Shown piece by piece: positions 19,377-36,448 of a DNA stretch of 64,000 bases. How positions within the stretch are numbered: position 1 is the first letter of the stretch; every line of letters starts with the position of its first letter. The notes below the pieces were generated by a model, which saw only the letters and a program-made list of their open reading frames with translations, had not been told where the DNA came from and did no database searches. A program made the translations under genes and the position numbers. This stretch comes from Dehalococcoidia bacterium (lineage in GTDB: Bacteria; Chloroflexota; Dehalococcoidia; Lucifugimonadales; UBA1123). The DNA is taken from assembly GCA_965197695.1 (NCBI GenBank), contig OZ240222.1, forward strand, positions 1,269,588 to 1,333,587. The letters run 5' to 3'.

Positions 19377-21821
19377 TCAGTTGAGCTCGATCCACGTGGC
19401 GCCGTTGCCTCCACGCTCCTTCGGTTCCGGCCCATAGCTCTTGACGGCGCGATGGTGGCGCAGATGATCGCGCACGACATTTCTCAGTACGCCCGTCCCT
19501 CTGCCGTGAATCACTCGCAGACGGGTCAGTCCATCTCGTATCGCATGGTCCAGGAATTGGTCCAGGTCGATCTGCGCATCTCCGGCGCGCATCCCTCGCA
19601 TGTCGATCTCGACGCGCCCGCCGGGGCCTGCAAGGTCCGTCGTCACCGCGGGAGTCTCGTCCCCCGGTTGATCTTCCCCGTCCGTCTCGATTCGCGACAG
19701 CCGGTGTAAGTCCACGTTCACCCGCACCCGCCCAATGCTGACGGTTGCGCTCTCGCCGGGGCGGTCGATCTCTACAATCCTGCCCCGAAGGTTCATACCC
19801 CTGATGAATACGGTGTCGCTCTCGGCGAGCGGTCGGGAGACCTGCCGCTGTGGTCTCGACGGGGTCGGGTCCGGTACTTCCACAGCCGCAAGGTCCTGCC
19901 TGATCCGCGCGATCCGGGCTCGCGTGGGCGACGCCTCCCCTGTGGACCGCTCAGGTCCGACCCACTGTAAGGAAGCCTCCGCGCCGTCCAGCTTCCGGCT
20001 GATCTCCTCCATCCGGAGCAGTACGCCACTGCGAACAGAGTCCAGCATCTCATCGCGGCTGTCGACCAGGTACTCGATCTGCCCTTCGAGCTCACCACGG
20101 AGCGCTTCCGCTTCCGCCTGCGCCCTTGCTGTCGCCTCCACGTTGGTCTGAAGCTCTCTGCGCTCACGTTGCAGCTCGTTCAACCAGTCCTCGAACAGCA
20201 GGTGCTGCGGCTCCATCAACTCCCGCGCCTCTTCGAGAATATCCACTCGCAGTCCCAATCGCTCGGCGACCGCCAGCGCGTAGCTTCGACCGGGGATGCC
20301 TACAGTCAGCTCGTAGGTCGGCTCGAGGGTCTCGGGATCGAGCTGAAAGCTGGCATTCATCATGTCGCTCGAAGACTCGGCGAACGCCGCGACGTTCCTG
20401 TGGTGTGTCGTCACGACAGTCGCGATCCGCTTACGCGCCAGAAAAGCCACTATGGCCTTCGCGAGCGCGGAACCCTCGTCAGGATCGGTGCTGGTGCCCA
20501 GCTCGTCCAGAAGCACGAGGGAGTCCGGTCCGGCGTGTCGCAGAATACTTATGACGTTGCGAATGTGGGAGCCGAAGGTCGAAACCGAATCGGCTATGCT
20601 CTGCTGGTCTCCGATATCCGCAAAGACGCCCCCGAACACGGGCAGCGCGCTGCCCTCGTCCGCCACGACCTGTAGGCCCGACTGGTGCATGAGCGCCGCA
20701 AGTCCCACGGTCTTCATCGCGACGGTCTTGCCCCCCGTGTTAGGACCTGTGACAACCAGCGCGGACCAGTCGGGACCGACGTTGATCGTGAGCGGCACGG
20801 CGTCGCGTCCCAGCAGTGGGTGCCTGGCCCGTATCAACCGGAGATGCTCCCCACCGTCAGCGGCAGAGGGCGGGACGGCGTCGAGGCGCCGGCTGTACCG
20901 CGCTCTGGCCAGCGCGAAGTCCAACTTGGCCGTCGTCTCATTGGCGAGCCTGATGTCCTCAGAGACCGCCCCCACGAGCTCCGAGAGGTCCCTGTAAACA
21001 CGCAGTACCTCACGTTCTTCCTCGAGGGCGAGCTCGCGCCACTCGTTGCACAGCTCAACCGTCGAGAACGGCTCGACGAACACGGTGGCGCCGGTATTGG
21101 AGGCGTCGTGTACGATTCCGGAGACCCGATGTCGCCGGTCCGACCGCACCGGCACCACGAGCCGGTCCCCGCGGACCGATATGATCGGGTCCTGCAGCGC
21201 GTCCCGACCTGTTGGCGACTGGATGAACCGCTGAAGCGCTTCGGTGACGTGTTCGTATGCGACCCGTATCTGTCGCCGCAGGGCGCGCAGGGTCGGCGTC
21301 GCGTCGTCCCTGACCTCGCCCCGGCGATCGATCTTCGCCCGTATCTGTCGCTGGATCTCGCGCAGATCGGGGATCAGCGAAGCCAGCTCTCCCATGATCG
21401 GGGCTACGTCGCCGGCCCGCGAAATAGACGATCGCGCTCTGCGGTGTACTTCGAGCGAGTCCGCCACCGCCAGCAGCTCGCCCCCGGTCAGCACGCCGCC
21501 CAGACCGGCGCGGGATACGGACTCCGACGTGTCGGTCTCGGAATTGAGGGACAGGTCGTCGATCTCGTCCAGGAGCGCGCGCGCGTCCGCGGTCTGCTCC
21601 TGGAGTCTGTCAACCTCGAAGGGGTCGAACGAGGGAACCAGCGCCAGCGCCAGGCTCCTGGCCCCGTAGAACGTGGTCTGGTCCGCCAGCCGACGGCGTA
21701 TCTCATCGAAGTCGAGCAGCCGAAGCGCCGATGCCCGCAGCTCGGCAAGCTCGGCGGCCAGGTCGGTTGCCGAACACTCCCGGCCAGTGTCGGATGATTG
21801 AGGTCTGAGCAGTTCGGTCAA
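19377..21821 (-). CDS. mutS2: Endonuclease MutS2 (MutS ATPase + C-terminal Smr domain)
   Basis: Walker A GPNTGGKT, LVLLDELGTSTDPDEG, and C-terminal Smr motifs (IDMRGMR...VIHGRGTGVLR). Confidence 0.9.
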   Translation of the reverse strand: MTELLRPQSSDTGRECSATDLAAELAELRASALRLLDFDEIRRRLADQTTFYGARSLALALVPSFDPFEVDRLQEQTADARALLDEIDDLSLNSETDTSESVSRAGLGGVLTGGELLAVADSLEVHRRARSSISRAGDVAPIMGELASLIPDLREIQRQIRAKIDRRGEVRDDATPTLRALRRQIRVAYEHVTEALQRFIQSPTGRDALQDPIISVRGDRLVVPVRSDRRHRVSGIVHDASNTGATVFVEPFSTVELCNEWRELALEEEREVLRVYRDLSELVGAVSEDIRLANETTAKLDFALARARYSRRLDAVPPSAADGGEHLRLIRARHPLLGRDAVPLTINVGPDWSALVVTGPNTGGKTVAMKTVGLAALMHQSGLQVVADEGSALPVFGGVFADIGDQQSIADSVSTFGSHIRNVISILRHAGPDSLVLLDELGTSTDPDEGSALAKAIVAFLARKRIATVVTTHHRNVAAFAESSSDMMNASFQLDPETLEPTYELTVGIPGRSYALAVAERLGLRVDILEEARELMEPQHLLFEDWLNELQRERRELQTNVEATARAQAEAEALRGELEGQIEYLVDSRDEMLDSVRSGVLLRMEEISRKLDGAEASLQWVGPERSTGEASPTRARIARIRQDLAAVEVPDPTPSRPQRQVSRPLAESDTVFIRGMNLRGRIVEIDRPGESATVSIGRVRVNVDLHRLSRIETDGEDQPGDETPAVTTDLAGPGGRVEIDMRGMRAGDAQIDLDQFLDHAIRDGLTRLRVIHGRGTGVLRNVVRDHLRHHRAVKSYGPEPKERGGNGATWIELN

Positions 21822-22274: not shown

Positions 22275-23096
22275 ATGTACTACATCACCAACATATACGC
22301 ACTCAAGACCCTCGCCGATGACATCAGCAACACAACCACCGATGTCCGCGACGTCATCGACAAACTACACGACATCGCGCGGGGCAGGACCCCACGCGCC
22401 AACACCCGCGACCGCATCGCCGCCACACGCATCCTCCTAGACAGAGGCTTCGGCAAAGTCCCCAGGCGCGCAGACTACAACCCCGATCGCCACCAGACAC
22501 CTGTCCCCGACCACGACAGACCCGTGGAACCCTCACACAATCCCACACCGACCACACCCGGAACCGTGGCGCAGCTCGATGAGTCCCTGCACGACTCCCT
22601 CGGCCCCGCTCCTTCCTTCGAGCCGGACCCGTCCCCATCCTTCGAGCCGGACCCCCAGTCCACCACGGACAGCCACATCGTAGACGTCATCGACACCCAG
22701 GACTACATCCTCATGGTCACCGACAACGGTCACACTCTCGTGACCGTTCTCACCGACATTCTCAGGGCCGACGACGATGACCCGGCCATCAGGCCAAGCC
22801 ACCAGATCGCGGTCGCCAGGATCCTCCTGGACCGCACCCTCGGCTCGGACTGTGAACCCCCCAAAGACTCCGTCCCTCCCGAGGATGTTCCGTACACCCA
22901 GGAGTGGCTGGAAGACGGATACCGCCAGCTCAACGAGATCACCCTTAGGGTTATGGCGAGTCCGCCGAAGTACACCCACCTGACCGCTGAGGAGCGGGAG
23001 AACAGGCTGGGCGAGATCTACAAAGAGCTAAAGGCCAGGCACGCCGGACCCGGCTACACCGGCTACACCGGCAGGCTCGACGACTACGACCCGTGA
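22275..23096 (+). CDS. Hypothetical protein with internally duplicated R-I-x-x-x-R-I-L-L-D-R module and Pro-rich linker
   Basis: RDRIAATRILLDRGFGK and HQIAVARILLDRTLG are about 150 aa apart. A 2 x 24-nt tandem repeat encodes PSFEPDPS. Confidence 0.5.
   Translation: MYYITNIYALKTLADDISNTTTDVRDVIDKLHDIARGRTPRANTRDRIAATRILLDRGFGKVPRRADYNPDRHQTPVPDHDRPVEPSHNPTPTTPGTVAQLDESLHDSLGPAPSFEPDPSPSFEPDPQSTTDSHIVDVIDTQDYILMVTDNGHTLVTVLTDILRADDDDPAIRPSHQIAVARILLDRTLGSDCEPPKDSVPPEDVPYTQEWLEDGYRQLNEITLRVMASPPKYTHLTAEERENRLGEIYKELKARHAGPGYTGYTGRLDDYDP
22611..22657. repeat. 2 x 24-nt in-frame tandem repeat
   Basis: TCCTTCGAGCCGGACCC occurs at 22614-22630 and again at 22638-22654. Confidence 0.7.
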
Positions 23097-26855: not shown

Positions 26856-27395
26856 TCAACCCTGGTGTGACGCCGGTTGAGCGCGTCTTCTTCGGATGTA
26901 CATTATGGCGACCGCGACGCCGCCCAATGCGCCAAGAGCCAGGCATAGTAGATACACCTGGCCTGTGGACAACAGGTGCAGCATCACGTTGACCTCCGAC
27001 CACGGAGCGAACGGCCTCACGTCCGTGTGGACTATGCTGTCCAGCAGGACGTGGCTGTAGCCGCCAACCAGCGCTCCCGAAATCGCCGCGACCAATGGGA
27101 TCCGTGATCCGATCCGCAGGACGCTGTCCTGGTCCCGGGCAGCGAGACGATTCCACAGGGTGAGCGCGTGTTCCAACACCGGCCGGCCGATGACGACAGT
27201 CAGCAAAGCGACCAGGGTAGCCCCCGGATAGGTGTGGAGGAACCGGTGGTACGGCCAGTCCCCTCTGAGCAGGTGGACAGCCGCTTCACTGTCGATGACT
27301 ACCTGTGTTACGCCAAAGACCAGAAAGCTAAAATACCTGGGAGCCGCGGCCTTCACCGCCAGCGCAACCCCCATATGAACCGGAGTGATCGGCAT
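26856..27395 (-). CDS. DUF4184-like membrane protein
   Basis: MPITPVHMGVALA start and a HVLLDSIVH motif, with hydrophobic helices. Confidence 0.5.
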   Translation of the reverse strand: MPITPVHMGVALAVKAAAPRYFSFLVFGVTQVVIDSEAAVHLLRGDWPYHRFLHTYPGATLVALLTVVIGRPVLEHALTLWNRLAARDQDSVLRIGSRIPLVAAISGALVGGYSHVLLDSIVHTDVRPFAPWSEVNVMLHLLSTGQVYLLCLALGALGGVAVAIMYIRRRRAQPASHQG

Positions 27396-27421: not shown

Positions 27422-27450
27422 TTCGACGCTTGGTCTGGAATGTGTAAAAT
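27422..27450 (+). promoter_or_regulatory. Possible promoter of the ATPase/TOPRIM-like pair
   Basis: TTCGAC (27422-27427), 17-nt spacer, TAAAAT (27445-27450). Confidence 0.25.
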
Positions 27451-27528
27451 GGTTGCTATGGGAAATTAGCATTGATTCCAGCCGCCAAAATCGTTGGGTA
27501 GCCTCGTCTGCCGAAGGAGTGTAGACGA

Positions 27529-28659
27529 ATGAAGCTCTTGAGCCTCACTGTAAGGAACTACCGCAGTCTCCGCGATGCGAGCATTGAGTTGGGCGACCTC
27601 ACATTATTCATTGGGGCCAACGCATCGGGGAAGAGCGCCATACTCGACGCACTCCGATTTCTGAACGAAGCTGTTCAGACACGCGACTTCCGCGCGCCGG
27701 TATTTTCTCGCGGCGGTATCCTCAATCTGGCATGGAAGGGACAGGAGGCAAGCCAGATAGAGTTGATGGTGGCTCTGGAAGACGGAGACAGCCGTTTCGA
27801 GTGGTCTGTACGTCTGATCAGACAGGCGCGTGATTTCCATGTCGAGGAGCAAGTCCACGAAGCTCCTACCGGGTACCCTCCGACCCAGCTACTCAGCGCT
27901 GAGAAGGGCGAGGGCTGGTGGTGGTCTGGCGAGGAGGGGGAACGGGTGATGCTGAAGCAGCCGCCATCCACCTGTGCGCTCGCGGCCGCTTCCGCCGACG
28001 CGTCGTTCCCGGCCCGTGAGGTCGCGGAGTTCATCGGGAGGTGGGGCTTCTTCGACCCGAACCCGTTCTTGCTCCGGCGGGACTGGAACCTTGCGGACTC
28101 TGGCAGGTTCGATCCATACGGGCGGAATCTCGGCGAGACGCTGTACGCTCTCTCAAAATCGTCTCCTGATGTCCTGGAGAAGATCGTCGCGGCAACCCGG
28201 TCGGTGGTGGGCCTTCCATCCAAAATCGAGACCAGGGAGTCTGAGGACCGCTTTTACTTCGTGCAGACTGAACCCGGACTCCAGTTCCCGGTGAACCAGA
28301 TGGGCGTATCCAGCGGGACGCTGCGTATGCTGGCGCTGATGACCGCCCTTCATGGACAACCGGAGACCGCGCTGATCGGCATCGAGGAGCCTGAGAACTA
28401 CATCCACCCAGCCGCTCTGTCCTCTTTCGTGGAGCACATACTTGACGCGCGGGACCGCATCCAATTCATGGTGACCACGCACTCGCCTCTCCTGCTCGAC
28501 TTCCTGAACGACCCTGCGGCCGTGAACGTTGTCAAGCGTGACGACCTGCGGGGCACAGCCGTCTTGAGAGAGTGCGATCCGGACAGTGTGCGAAAAGCTT
28601 TGGAAGCTTCAGGCTTCGGGCTCGGTGAGTACTACGAGACTAGGGGGTTTGGAGGCTGA
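27529..28659 (+). CDS. ABC/AAA-type ATPase (AAA_21/AAA_15-like)
   Basis: Walker A GANASGKS, signature-like VSSGTLRML, Walker B LIGIEEPENYIHP, H-loop VTTHSP. Confidence 0.8.
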   Translation: MKLLSLTVRNYRSLRDASIELGDLTLFIGANASGKSAILDALRFLNEAVQTRDFRAPVFSRGGILNLAWKGQEASQIELMVALEDGDSRFEWSVRLIRQARDFHVEEQVHEAPTGYPPTQLLSAEKGEGWWWSGEEGERVMLKQPPSTCALAAASADASFPAREVAEFIGRWGFFDPNPFLLRRDWNLADSGRFDPYGRNLGETLYALSKSSPDVLEKIVAATRSVVGLPSKIETRESEDRFYFVQTEPGLQFPVNQMGVSSGTLRMLALMTALHGQPETALIGIEEPENYIHPAALSSFVEHILDARDRIQFMVTTHSPLLLDFLNDPAAVNVVKRDDLRGTAVLRECDPDSVRKALEASGFGLGEYYETRGFGG

Positions 28660-28664
28660 CAGAG

Positions 28665-29258
28665 GTGACGAAACATGTGGTGGTCATTGCCTCCGGCGAG
28701 ACCGAGCGCCGAGCGCTTCCTCATCTGCTGGTGCATCTGCGTGATCGCGGCATTGAGGTGAGCGTTCGTATTCCGTCTCGAAACCGGGCGCTAAGCGTCG
28801 AGGTGGCCTACAAACTCATTCGGTCCTCCCTGTACGACATCGGTGGGCTGTCACCGGACAAGTATGTCATTCTTGTAGACCTCGACGATACAGACCCTCG
28901 TAAAGTGTTGGACCCTATAAGATTGGGACTACAGGAGCGTCTTGGCGATCAGTTCGAGCCGAGCGTTCAGTACGCGTATGCGCAGTGGCATCTTGAAGCG
29001 TGGTATTTTGCCGATGCCGCACACTTGAGAGATTACCTCGGAGGTGCCCTGAGGAATGTAGATACTTCACGGCCTGACGAGATTCAGAATCCGAAGCTTC
29101 ATCTGAAGCACTTGCTCAGTAACCGGTTCTACACCGCTCGGGTATCCGAAGAGATTGCAAGGATGCTGGATGCTGAAACCATCGCGGGGCGCAGCCCCAG
29201 CTTCAGCGGATTTCTGGAGGAGGTCAGGAATGGCGCGTCACACACGGCTACAGCCTGA
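28665..29258 (+). CDS. TOPRIM-like small protein (DUF4276-type)
   Basis: GTG start 5 nt after the ATPase stop, with GGAGG 9 nt upstream. Contains VVIASGETERRAL, ILVDLDDTD and HLEAWYFAD, i.e. an E...DxD acidic layout. Confidence 0.55.
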   Translation: MTKHVVVIASGETERRALPHLLVHLRDRGIEVSVRIPSRNRALSVEVAYKLIRSSLYDIGGLSPDKYVILVDLDDTDPRKVLDPIRLGLQERLGDQFEPSVQYAYAQWHLEAWYFADAAHLRDYLGGALRNVDTSRPDEIQNPKLHLKHLLSNRFYTARVSEEIARMLDAETIAGRSPSFSGFLEEVRNGASHTATA

Positions 29259-29282: not shown

Positions 29283-30485
29283 CTACTCCACCACACCATC
29301 GGCGCGCAGAGACTCGATCTCCGCGTCTGAGCAACCAAGATCGCGCAGCACCCCGTCGGTGTGCTGGCCGAGTGTCGGCGCGGGACGCTGAAACCTGCCC
29401 GGCGTCTCGGACAGCTTGATCGGGATTCCGATGTTCTTCACGGAACCGGCCACGGGGTGCTCGGTCTCGACCATCATCTCCCTAGCCCGCACCTGCGGAT
29501 CGTCATACATCTGCGCGAGATCGTAGATCGGGCCGGCGGGGACGTTGGCAGATTCGAGTACGTCGAGCCAGTGCTCGGAAGTCTGTTGCGCGAAGGTACG
29601 TTCCAGGGTGGATACCAGATCGTCCAGGTTGTTCATGCGGTCTTTGGGCTCGGCGAACCTGGCGTCCGACACCAGCTCGTCGCGCCCGATGGCGGCGCAC
29701 AGCCGCTCCCAGTTCGCCTGGTTCGCGGCGCCGATGTTCACGTATCCGTCGGATGTCTCGAACGCCTGGTATGGCGCGGTCAGCCGGTGCGCGCTACCTC
29801 CGGGTCCCGGAGCGTCGCCGGTGGCGAAGTACATTGCCGACTCCCAGAACGTGTAGGCGATTCCGGCTTCGAGCAGCGACGTGTCCACGTGCTGCCCCTG
29901 GCCCGTCCTGAGCCGGTTGATGTACGCGGTCAGGATTCCAAGAGCGGCGAACATCCCCGCGTTGAGGTCGCAGATCGGCACGCCGATCTTGGTCGGCGGA
30001 GCGCCGGGATGACCGGTGACGCTCATCAGTCCGCTCATACCTTGCGTCACAAGGTCGAATCCGCCGCGCCGCGCGTATGGCCCGGTCGCCCCGAATCCTG
30101 AGATCGTGCAGTACACGACTGCCGGATTGATCTCCCGTACCTGCTCGTAACCGAGGCCCATCCGCTCGATCGCGCCGGGTCGAAAGTTCTGGACGAGGAT
30201 GTCCGACTCCCGCGCCATTCGCTGGGCGAGCTCGCGTCCGCGGTCGGCCCTGAGATCCACGACGATGCTGCGCTTGTTCCGGTTGATTCCGAGGAACGCC
30301 GCCGACTCGCCCTCGATGAACGGAGGCCCCATCCTGCGGGCGTCGTCTCCGCCGTTGGGCTTTTCAACCTTGATCACATCCGCGCCCATGTCTCCGAGCA
30401 TCATGGTGCAGTACGGCCCTGCCATGATCTGCGTCAGGTCGAGGACTCGGATCCCGTCAAGGGGCAGCGCCTGCGCCACAATCAT
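29283..30485 (-). CDS. Family III CoA-transferase (CaiB/BaiF)
   Basis: IRVLDLTQIMAGPYCTMMLGDMGADVIKVE N-terminus. Confidence 0.85.
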   Translation of the reverse strand: MIVAQALPLDGIRVLDLTQIMAGPYCTMMLGDMGADVIKVEKPNGGDDARRMGPPFIEGESAAFLGINRNKRSIVVDLRADRGRELAQRMARESDILVQNFRPGAIERMGLGYEQVREINPAVVYCTISGFGATGPYARRGGFDLVTQGMSGLMSVTGHPGAPPTKIGVPICDLNAGMFAALGILTAYINRLRTGQGQHVDTSLLEAGIAYTFWESAMYFATGDAPGPGGSAHRLTAPYQAFETSDGYVNIGAANQANWERLCAAIGRDELVSDARFAEPKDRMNNLDDLVSTLERTFAQQTSEHWLDVLESANVPAGPIYDLAQMYDDPQVRAREMMVETEHPVAGSVKNIGIPIKLSETPGRFQRPAPTLGQHTDGVLRDLGCSDAEIESLRADGVVE

Positions 30486-31336: not shown

Positions 31337-31636
31337 TCAACTCTTGATAACTTTCCGACGATCCCTTATTGGCCGAGCGCCCCTGCCTACTCGTTCAGCG
31401 AGGCCGAGAACTGCCTGCCAGTCGCCTGTACGTCCCCATCGAACGATCCCGTCCCTCATTAGCGACTCCAGGGCATCGCCGAACTCCTGTTCCGGGAGAT
31501 TGACCGCCTTGCGTAGGGCATCTATCGTCAACCATTCCCCCCGAGTGTCCGAGAGAGCCAGCAGGATTCGGCGTTCATGGCGGTCGAAGTCTTCAGGGTG
31601 GCTTCTCCAGTCGAGACCCTTCAAGTATGTCGCCAT
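31337..31636 (-). CDS. Hypothetical small winged-helix-like protein
   Basis: 99-aa ORF with a helical core (ILLALSDTRGEWLTIDALRKAV). No motif recognised. Confidence 0.35.
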   Translation of the reverse strand: MATYLKGLDWRSHPEDFDRHERRILLALSDTRGEWLTIDALRKAVNLPEQEFGDALESLMRDGIVRWGRTGDWQAVLGLAERVGRGARPIRDRRKVIKS

Positions 31637-33732: not shown

Positions 33733-33823
33733 GGAGGGGTGGCCGAGCGGACGAAGGCACCTGTCTTGAAAACAGGCATACGTTAAGCGCGTATCGCGGG
33801 TTCGAATCCCGCCCCCTCCGCCA
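33733..33823 (+). tRNA. tRNA-Ser (anticodon UGA), CCA encoded
   Basis: GGAGGGG...CCCCTCC acceptor stem. Anticodon arm CCTGT-CTTGAAA-ACAGG. Long variable arm. T-loop GGTTCGAATCC. Confidence 0.9.
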
Positions 33824-36371: not shown

Positions 36372-36448
36372 TGGCGACCCCGACCGGATTCGAACCGGTG
36401 ATCTCTGCCTTGACAGGGCAGTATGTTAAGCCACTACACCACGGGGCC
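36372..36448 (-). tRNA. tRNA-Asp (anticodon GUC), CCA encoded
   Basis: Reverse complement: GGCCCCG...CGGGGTC acceptor stem. Anticodon arm CTGCC-CTGTCAA-GGCAG. T-loop GGTTCGAATCC. Confidence 0.9.

Follow-up and report, generated by a model that had tools for sequence, protein, structure and literature searches.

HEC-01 in Dehalococcoidia: a closely spaced gene pair of an ABC ATPase and a putative TOPRIM-derived DUF4276 effector

The window analyzed here is a stretch of 64,000 nucleotides from a Dehalococcoidia bacterium (contig OZ240222.1, positions 1,269,588 to 1,333,587), part of a 3.76-Mb metagenomic contig. It carries two adjacent genes, A and B, encoding a 376-amino acid (aa) ATPase of the ATP-binding cassette (ABC) type and a 197-aa protein of the DUF4276 family. 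Judged by profile matches, the pair is a member of the catalogued candidate anti-phage system HEC-01. In our view the two genes probably form a translationally coupled module, in which the ATPase would act as sensor and the small protein as a nuclease effector.

The description of HEC-01 (Hma-embedded candidate 01; PADLOC-DB v2) by Payne et al. (bioRxiv 10.1101/2024.01.29.577857) pairs a TOPRIM protein with an ABC ATPase. It has been reported that HEC-01B shares the metal-binding site of the Burkholderia OLD nuclease (bioRxiv 10.1101/2024.01.29.577857). In PADLOC searches the best of 153 matches of A was HEC-01A (PDLC04178, 2.1e-53; residues 3-368 on profile positions 9-374 of 399). B matched HEC-01B (PDLC04196, 2.6e-13; residues 1-190 on profile positions 1-191 of 197), and only HEC-01 models matched it. 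Since HEC-01 is the top PADLOC match of both genes, which are adjacent and on the same strand, the pairing already has a name. A preliminary description of this DNA had proposed an uncharacterized two-component defence module whose pairing lacked a defined function or trigger. The module itself was supported; its novelty, however, was overstated, as HEC-01 is catalogued and has been the subject of two published tests. In one of these, a randomly chosen representative is reported to have conferred protection on E. coli B against one or more of the phages T4, T5, and T7 (2026 cold-seep study, PMC12881386). Other surveys still treat HEC-01 as a candidate, and it is reported to be among the abundant candidate systems in environmental metagenomes.

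The effector family has appeared in other defence contexts. DUF4276 has been classified as a Toprim member with a conserved Glu and DxD, with the homolog Mad4 in MADS (Menshen study, PMC12065111). Deletion of mad3 or mad4 lowered the phage resistance conferred by the eight-gene MADS in P. aeruginosa. The PARIS paper lists DUF4276 beside DUF4435 among the partner domains of AAA15/21 ATPases, and AriB of PARIS, whose partner is an ABC ATPase, is a Toprim tRNase.

Structure of the gene pair and its two proteins

Gene A (27529-28659, plus strand) starts with ATG and gene B (28665-29258, plus strand) with GTG, both as given in the list of open reading frames (ORFs). The TGA stop of A (28657-28659) is separated from the B start by a spacer of 5 nt. 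A ribosome-binding site for B, GGAGG (28651-28655, plus strand), was read within the 3′ end of A, and a Shine-Dalgarno-like AAGGAG (27514-27519, plus strand) is located 9 nt 5′ of the A start codon. The short gap and the position of the B ribosome-binding site inside A suggest translational coupling. The flanking genes lie on the minus strand and encode a DUF4184-like protein (26856-27395; 33.3 bits, cutoff 25) and a CoA-transferase III (CoA_transf_3, 29283-30485; 3e-142). The preliminary description had given the same two ORFs, gap, ribosome-binding site, flanks, and sequence motifs, all of which were found in the DNA and its translations. It had also called the pair AT-richer than its flanks, which is clear at third codon positions (GC3 of 0.73 in A and 0.61 in B vs 0.81 +/- 0.04 in 14 neighboring genes, minimum 0.73) but modest over the whole span (GC of 0.582, at the 12th percentile of tiles of equal size, vs 0.617 for the window on average). 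The promoter that it had suggested for the pair is not supported: a single weak sigma-70-like site (TCGACG, 16-nt spacer, TAAAAT; 27423-27450, plus strand; 9/12 match) was found in the 133-nt intergenic region 5′ of A, and because 0.8 such matches are expected from shuffled sequences, it is no evidence for a promoter. The same region had no Rfam match and an RNA fold that was not unusual (z = -0.66), and no terminator-like site was found in a scan of the pair region.

The ATPase motifs of A are intact. These comprise Walker A (P-loop) GANASGKS (residues 29-36; 27613-27636), an ABC signature-like VSSGTLRML (residues 260-268; 28306-28332), Walker B with its following motif LIGIEEPENYIHP (residues 282-294; 28372-28410), and the H-loop TTHSP (residues 316-320; 28474-28488), all on the plus strand. 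Among 91 homologs the invariant positions are G29, N31, G34, and K35 in the first; S261, S262, G263, T264, L265, and R266 in the second; G284, E287, P288, E289, N290, Y291, H293, and P294 in the third; and T316, H318, S319, and P320 in the last. From general knowledge of ABC ATPases we take E286 to be the Walker B acid and E287 the likely catalytic Glu.

Family and fold comparisons placed A among the ATPases of known defence systems, as the preliminary description had expected. Pfam searches returned AAA_21 (2e-30) and AAA_15 (1e-24). The PADLOC models of AriA (1e-31) matched more weakly than HEC-01A, and mad3 matched at 1.7e-18; the NCBIfam MAD3 model scored 123 bits (1.4e-35), with a cutoff of 420. 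By sequence, the Thermus OLD nuclease (6P74; 1.5e-11) was the closest solved relative, ahead of PtuA and Rad50. An AlphaFold2 model (pLDDT, a prediction of the local distance difference test, 81; predicted template modeling score, pTM, 0.83) consisted of an ABC head into which a beta-rich stretch, residues 76-143, is inserted. Its Foldseek matches were PtuA (Septu, retron I-A), Rad50, Thermus OLD, GajA, and SMC heads (5e-14 to 1e-11), with PtuA structures as the best (5e-14 to 1e-12). On this combined profile and fold evidence A is an ABC ATPase of the OLD/PARIS/Septu type. Two segments were modeled with pLDDT below 50, residues 177-199 (28057-28125) and the C-terminal tail, residues 360-376 (28606-28656); their conservation (0.75 and 0.82, respectively) is above the protein mean of 0.72. 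Both are candidate interfaces with B or with a trigger.

Protein B is of the DUF4276 type (PF14103; 47.0 bits, cutoff 30.2; residues 11-187 on profile positions 3-191 of 192), again as first proposed. No DUF4435, AriB, HNH, or PtuB match was obtained in Pfam and PADLOC (for DUF4435 and AriB at E<=0.1). An exhaustive search of 1.84 billion representative proteins gave relatives of B in 548 clusters at 50% identity (E<=1e-3), from which a diverse DUF4276 alignment was built. A profile search of the PDB found no solved structure of any DUF4276 relative; the B alignment yielded nothing but de novo designed TIM barrels, matched spuriously through repeats. The AlphaFold2 model of B is confident (pLDDT 89.9, pTM 0.86) and shows four strands (residues 3-8, 30-35, 66-72, and 100-106) that alternate with helices and precede a C-terminal helical bundle (residues 143-188).

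The relationship of B to TOPRIM nucleases was addressed by profile comparison. A reference alignment was built from the OLD-like TOPRIM region of E. coli YbjD, and the diverse DUF4276 profile was aligned with it by hhalign with a score of 28.05 (P = 0.0012, probability 19%). This score was above those of 100/100 column-shuffled controls (mean 13.7, standard deviation 3.0, maximum 23.9). The alignment placed B residues 5-32 (VVVIASGETERRALP) on positions 11-42 of the YbjD fragment (CWLLVEGETETWVINEL), that is, on YbjD residues ~380-411. A narrow B alignment gave no significant match to the YbjD TOPRIM (P = 0.086), and hhalign in global mode produced a meaningless alignment with the OLD TOPRIM.

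In the register so obtained, the B motif S10-G-E-T-E14 (28692-28706, plus strand), located in the loop after strand 1, aligns with EGETE of the YbjD OLD TOPRIM. S10 is invariant, E14 is invariant with the exception of one Asp, and E12 varies. E14 pairs with the second Glu of the YbjD vEGETE, which corresponds to E404 of Burkholderia OLD. In the model, the second motif, the DxD of D72-L-D74-D75 (28878-28889, plus strand; within VDLDD, residues 71-75), is at the C-terminal end of strand 3, and the third, H109-L-E111-A-W-Y-F-A-D117 (28989-29015, plus strand), where the helix following strand 4 begins. H109, E111, W113, and F115 are invariant and D117 is nearly so. The C-terminal helical region contributes K144 (N-P-K-L-H-L-K; 29094-29096, plus strand). 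All 64 intact copies of B, which come from several phyla, share the residues S10, K66, D72, D74, H109, E111, D138, and K144; in a set of 85 sequences, position 74 is D in 76/85 and N in 8/85, and position 144 is K in 84/85. As in TOPRIM, the conserved residues follow predicted strands 1, 3, and 4.

The active site of Burkholderia OLD consists of E400/E404, D455/D457, T506-x-E508, and K562, and the layout of B (E14; D72-x-D74; H109-x-E111; K144) runs parallel to it. By analogy, H109-x-E111 may be the counterpart of the metal B site T506-x-E508, and K144 is a candidate for the counterpart of the catalytic lysine K562. From motifs and model, B is likely a putative metal-dependent, OLD-like TOPRIM-derived nuclease, an assignment that is only partly verified. 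The E...DxD layout read in B in the preliminary description fits in its DxD and in the order of its motifs and is backed in part by the local profile match; the canonical Glu is ambiguous, and structural comparison returned no TOPRIM among the matches listed.

Distribution, loss of B, and genomic contexts

Relatives of A were collected in a scan of one genome per species, which returned 79 loci with 49-81% identity, all in metagenome-assembled genomes (MAGs). The majority belong to Dehalococcoidia; the others are found in Spirochaetia, Gamma- and Alphaproteobacteria, Acidobacteriota, Rhodothermales, Gemmatimonadota, and further groups. Several isolate names (for example RHO3_bin_54 and RHO1_bin_51) give an unconfirmed hint of a common marine host-associated habitat, perhaps sponges. 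In ~70/79 loci B is directly 3′ of A. Where a B start was detected, the gap from the A stop is between -14 and +7 nt, most often +5. The identities of A and B co-vary across loci (Mantel r = 0.82, 0/999 permutations), and comparison with five relatives gave ratios of nonsynonymous to synonymous substitution rates (omega) of 0.09-0.13 for A and 0.09-0.23 for B, at high synonymous divergence (dS). Both genes are under purifying selection by this measure. In two Dehalococcoidia a second, divergent AAA_21 plus DUF4276 pair is located within 3 kb of the first, in tandem (L012:12938-14715) or inverted (L035:12941-14673).

The distribution also points to transfer. Mean ATPase identity between phyla is 0.60-0.63, with values up to 0.74, and several copies of A have their nearest relative in another phylum. 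As identity within Chloroflexota is 0.67, close to the values between phyla, repeated horizontal transfer is implied. The GC content of the pair is below that of its flanks in 69/70 loci, with a mean difference of 6.1 points. The low GC and GC3 persist even where vertical inheritance of the pair spans the whole divergence of its flanking genes, so recent transfer alone is no explanation for them. Neither direct nor inverted flanking repeats were found across the loci, and it was not possible to place insertion boundaries or att-like sites. Non-coding sequence 5′ of the pair is common only to loci within the same syntenic group; none common to different groups was found.

Among 81 loci, B is intact in 64, frameshifted or truncated in nine, and without a match in eight, one of which lies at a contig end. 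Loss or damage of B was observed in L002, L004, L019, L024, L027, L045, L051, L052, L053, L056, L063, L070, and L078. A is full length in nearly all loci with decayed B, and remnants of the N- or C-terminus of B were recognized in several loci without a B match. On a sister contig of the same sample (L002:11137-11760), whose A is 86% identical, B is frameshifted just before HLEAWYF. Because B has been lost where A was kept, the two genes are not strictly interdependent for retention. The pattern fits an easily lost toxic effector, and a role of A without B is a possibility.

Clustering of the neighbors of the pair (1606 ORFs in 1067 clusters) revealed at least 42 different contexts. In the clade of the window (L001, L002, L016, L069) the order is amino-acid ABC transporter, DUF4184-like gene, A-B, and CoA-transferase; the DUF4184-like gene was not detected in L016. 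Genes for an enoyl-CoA hydratase and an amidohydrolase then follow in the window, L016, and L069. In three of these genomes A identities are 81-86% and those of flanking genes 57-88%. The divergence of A thus matches that of its flanks, indicating that the pair has been inherited vertically in this lineage and is not a recent island. Four neighbors in the window were tested against PADLOC, and none gave a match.

Other lineages carry the pair within or near known defence systems. In a Spirochaetia syntenic group of seven loci it is located between the DISARM genes DrmA (PADLOC, 1e-273) and DrmB (4e-78), at about 10001-11720 in L039, L042, L046, L047, L048, and L055. B is deleted in L050, where A is directly followed by an MZB-domain protein of the same cluster as the confirmed DrmB. 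For a survey with PADLOC and Pfam, 250 immediate neighbors from 44 representative contexts were pooled. Strong PADLOC matches included type I, II, and IIG restriction-modification, Septu (PtuA, PtuB), a DRT reverse transcriptase, DpdF, PsyrT, IetS, and mad2/3/8. The commonest Pfam families among the 250 were metabolic, with a few transposases (DDE, rve, IS630-like helix-turn-helix). The reading as a defence module is supported by DISARM embedding and by restriction-modification and Septu neighbors in other lineages, but not by the context of the window copy or by the commonest neighbor families.

Insertion into an unrelated operon was also observed. In Gammaproteobacteria MAGs the pair follows nuoB-nuoCD(-nuoE) (L058:6697-14389, L063:7093-12644, also L059, L060, and L081). 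As nuoF is found 3′ of the pair in L058 and L063, the module sits within the nuo (NADH dehydrogenase) operon as an insertion. L063 has lost B, and its nuoF begins ~210 nt after A. DUF6642 proteins follow nuoF in L058 and L063. Directly 3′ of the pair in L059 (11761-14653) and L081 (11462-12877) a nucleoside 2-deoxyribosyltransferase-like protein is encoded (weak, sub-threshold match), and in L059 an IS21 IstB gene comes next.

A relative of A without B was found in L041 (7866-20354), clustered with two further AAA_21/AAA_15 ATPases of 452 and 781 aa; the N-terminal ~340 aa of the larger one had no assignment. The cluster also encodes a type I-like restriction protein of 1376 aa (SWI2_SNF2/HSDR_N), which has a Peptidase_S24 match near its C-terminus. 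A by-eye reading of the protein 3′ of this A as HipA-like was rejected, since Pfam identified it as an AAA_21/AAA_15 ATPase. Elsewhere in the window are a MutS2-like gene (MutS_V plus Smr; 19377-21821), a 273-aa ORF without a Pfam or PADLOC match (22275-23096), a 99-aa ORF with a sub-threshold DUF6432 match only (31337-31636), and genes for tRNA-Ser(TGA) (33733-33823) and tRNA-Asp(GTC) (36372-36448).

Possible working of the module and alternative readings

The working that we propose is modeled on OLD, Gabija, PARIS, and Septu. A would dimerize or form larger oligomers through its ABC head, bind B, and hold it inactive; B would be a compact, metal-dependent nuclease of an OLD-like TOPRIM and a helical domain. 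Upon sensing of an infection cue by A, binding or hydrolysis of ATP would release or activate B. The effector might then cut nucleic acid, either nicking or cleaving DNA as do OLD and GajA or cleaving tRNA as does AriB. Such a cut would keep the phage from replicating, perhaps to the detriment of the cell. The A-B complex, the nuclease activity of B and its substrate, the trigger, and the defence activity of the window copy are all parts that we infer from these relatives.

Several observations speak against a defence module of this kind. The window copy has been inherited vertically with metabolic neighbors, and no defence or mobile gene was found within 10 kb of it. No relatives of A were found on viral contigs in the scan. 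B is degraded or absent in ~16/80 assessable loci (~20%). The position of the canonical TOPRIM Glu (E400) is occupied by the invariant S10 in the hhalign register, and the local match of B to the OLD TOPRIM profile covers only 28 columns at 19% probability. No conserved Gly follows B strand 2; conserved there are I36, P37 (invariant), and N40. Foldseek searches of the PDB and BFVD with the B model had no match at E<=1e-3, and none of the 50 matches listed was a TOPRIM; the best, non-significant ones were TIR, REC, RpiB, and lumazine-synthase-type folds, of which the first three are of the 2-1-3-4 type, the strand order that also characterizes the parallel sheet of TOPRIM. Of the published tests, one observed no protection by HEC-01 in E. 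coli against the BASEL and classic coliphages tested (bioRxiv 10.1101/2024.01.29.577857), and the other gives no fold-reduction figure for HEC-01 (PMC12881386).

Some of these points can be joined into a broader reading, which we regard as rather unlikely: that HEC-01B is a non-canonical TOPRIM-derived enzyme, that A has a function without B, and that the module is a long-term vertical resident of Dehalococcoidia with a role beyond classical phage defence. With an invariant Ser in place of the catalytic Glu and an added His-x-Glu/Lys site, the chemistry or substrate of HEC-01B could differ from those of OLD and AriB. The conserved unmodeled segments of A, including its C-terminal tail, may dock other partners or triggers.

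The pair could also be an accessory sub-module whose function requires a larger modification-dependent system (MADS, Hma, DISARM) and which is an orphan without autonomous defence in this genome. The contribution of mad3 and mad4 (whose product Mad4 is a DUF4276 homolog) to MADS resistance points in this direction, as do the discovery of HEC-01 embedded in Hma, its failure to defend when tested alone, the Spirochaetia pair between DrmA and DrmB, and the mad2 and mad8 matches among neighbors at other loci. However, most of the 42 or more contexts contain no partner system, no third gene is conserved across the 1606 neighboring ORFs, and in the window clade, where the pair stands alone among metabolic genes, purifying selection still acts on both genes. 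A scored far below the NCBIfam MAD3 cutoff, and one HEC-01 representative has been reported to be protective alone. We consider this dependence unlikely.

A toxin-antitoxin-like addiction module, with B as a toxic nuclease, A as the ATPase that neutralizes it, and persistence through addiction or a post-segregational effect, is quite improbable. The repeated loss of the putative nuclease with retention of the ATPase is the order of decay expected of a toxic B, and the genes are tightly coupled and co-diverging; the Pfam description of AAA_21 as "putative AbiEii toxin, Type IV TA system" is merely a family name. A large ATPase gene followed by a small nuclease gene, together with the ATPase architecture, is nevertheless the arrangement of PARIS, Septu, and OLD, unlike known antitoxins, and the module occurs within DISARM and near other defence genes. 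Toxin-antitoxin behavior and abortive-infection defence may, moreover, coexist. A housekeeping role in this Dehalococcoidia lineage, such as nucleic-acid repair or processing without an immune function, is very improbable: four related genomes have the pair at the same position with A and flanks similarly diverged in three, omega is low, the 10-kb surroundings lack defence and mobile genes, and the ABC ATPase fold is common to Rad50, SMC, and RecF, but the distribution is patchy across phyla with nearest relatives in other phyla, GC3 is persistently atypical, the pair is found inserted in unrelated operons, nuo among them, loss of B is recurrent and extends to the sister genome from the same sample, and only the 548 clusters match B.

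We return to the sensor/effector module as the preferred reading. The window pair opens no new category; its value is that of a well-characterized entry into a known candidate family, for which published phenotypes conflict. The subfamily offers more than 100 close homologs with very strong conservation and a confident effector model with a candidate active site (S10, E14, D72, D74, H109, E111, K144). The two conserved unmodeled segments of A are natural candidates for an A-B or trigger interface. Natural "experiments" are provided by the B-loss variants, the DISARM-embedded copies, and the nuo-operon insertions. Interest in the family rests on its mechanism, the Ser at the canonical Glu position, the recurrent loss of B, and the insertion into DISARM and nuo.

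Comparison with known systems

The OLD family includes Thermus OLD (6P74) and E. coli YbjD of Class 1, Burkholderia OLD of Class 2, and Gabija GajA. The fold of A matches those of Thermus OLD and GajA, and the motifs of B run parallel to the active site formed by the OLD TOPRIM and helical domains. In OLD and GajA, however, ATPase and TOPRIM are fused in one polypeptide, whereas the window pair consists of two separate ORFs. Class 2 OLD and Gabija have an adjacent UvrD/GajB helicase, none of which was found within 10 kb of the pair, and the OLD E400 position is a Ser in B. Septu and retron I-A share the logic of an ATPase with a separate small nuclease, and PtuA is the best structural match of A. 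The Septu effector PtuB is an HNH nuclease, in contrast to the DUF4276 protein B, which had no HNH or PtuB match, and neither a reverse transcriptase nor a non-coding RNA was found near the pair.

PARIS likewise combines an AAA_15/AAA_21 ABC ATPase (AriA) with a separate small effector of the TOPRIM family (AriB). AriB is a DUF4435 TOPRIM tRNase, and B has no match to it. AriA is a protein of 53-55 kDa, whereas A has 376 aa and a beta-rich insert. PARIS is often virus-borne, whereas the scan of viral contigs found no relatives of A. In MADS, Mad3 is an AAA-family ATPase and Mad4 a DUF4276 homolog, and A does match the mad3/MAD3 models. The full system has eight genes, of which MAD6, 7, and 8 are mandatory; none of these was found near the window pair, and the MAD3 match of A is at 123 bits vs the cutoff of 420. 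Menshen NsnC carries the same effector domain family as B, but as its C-terminal domain within the Menshen system, whereas B is a free-standing protein of 197 aa.

HEC-01 itself has the same order of two genes, with the ABC ATPase first and the small TOPRIM-like DUF4276 protein second. The described system is embedded in Hma, whereas the window copy stands alone among metabolic genes; both of its proteins match the HEC-01 models over nearly their full length.

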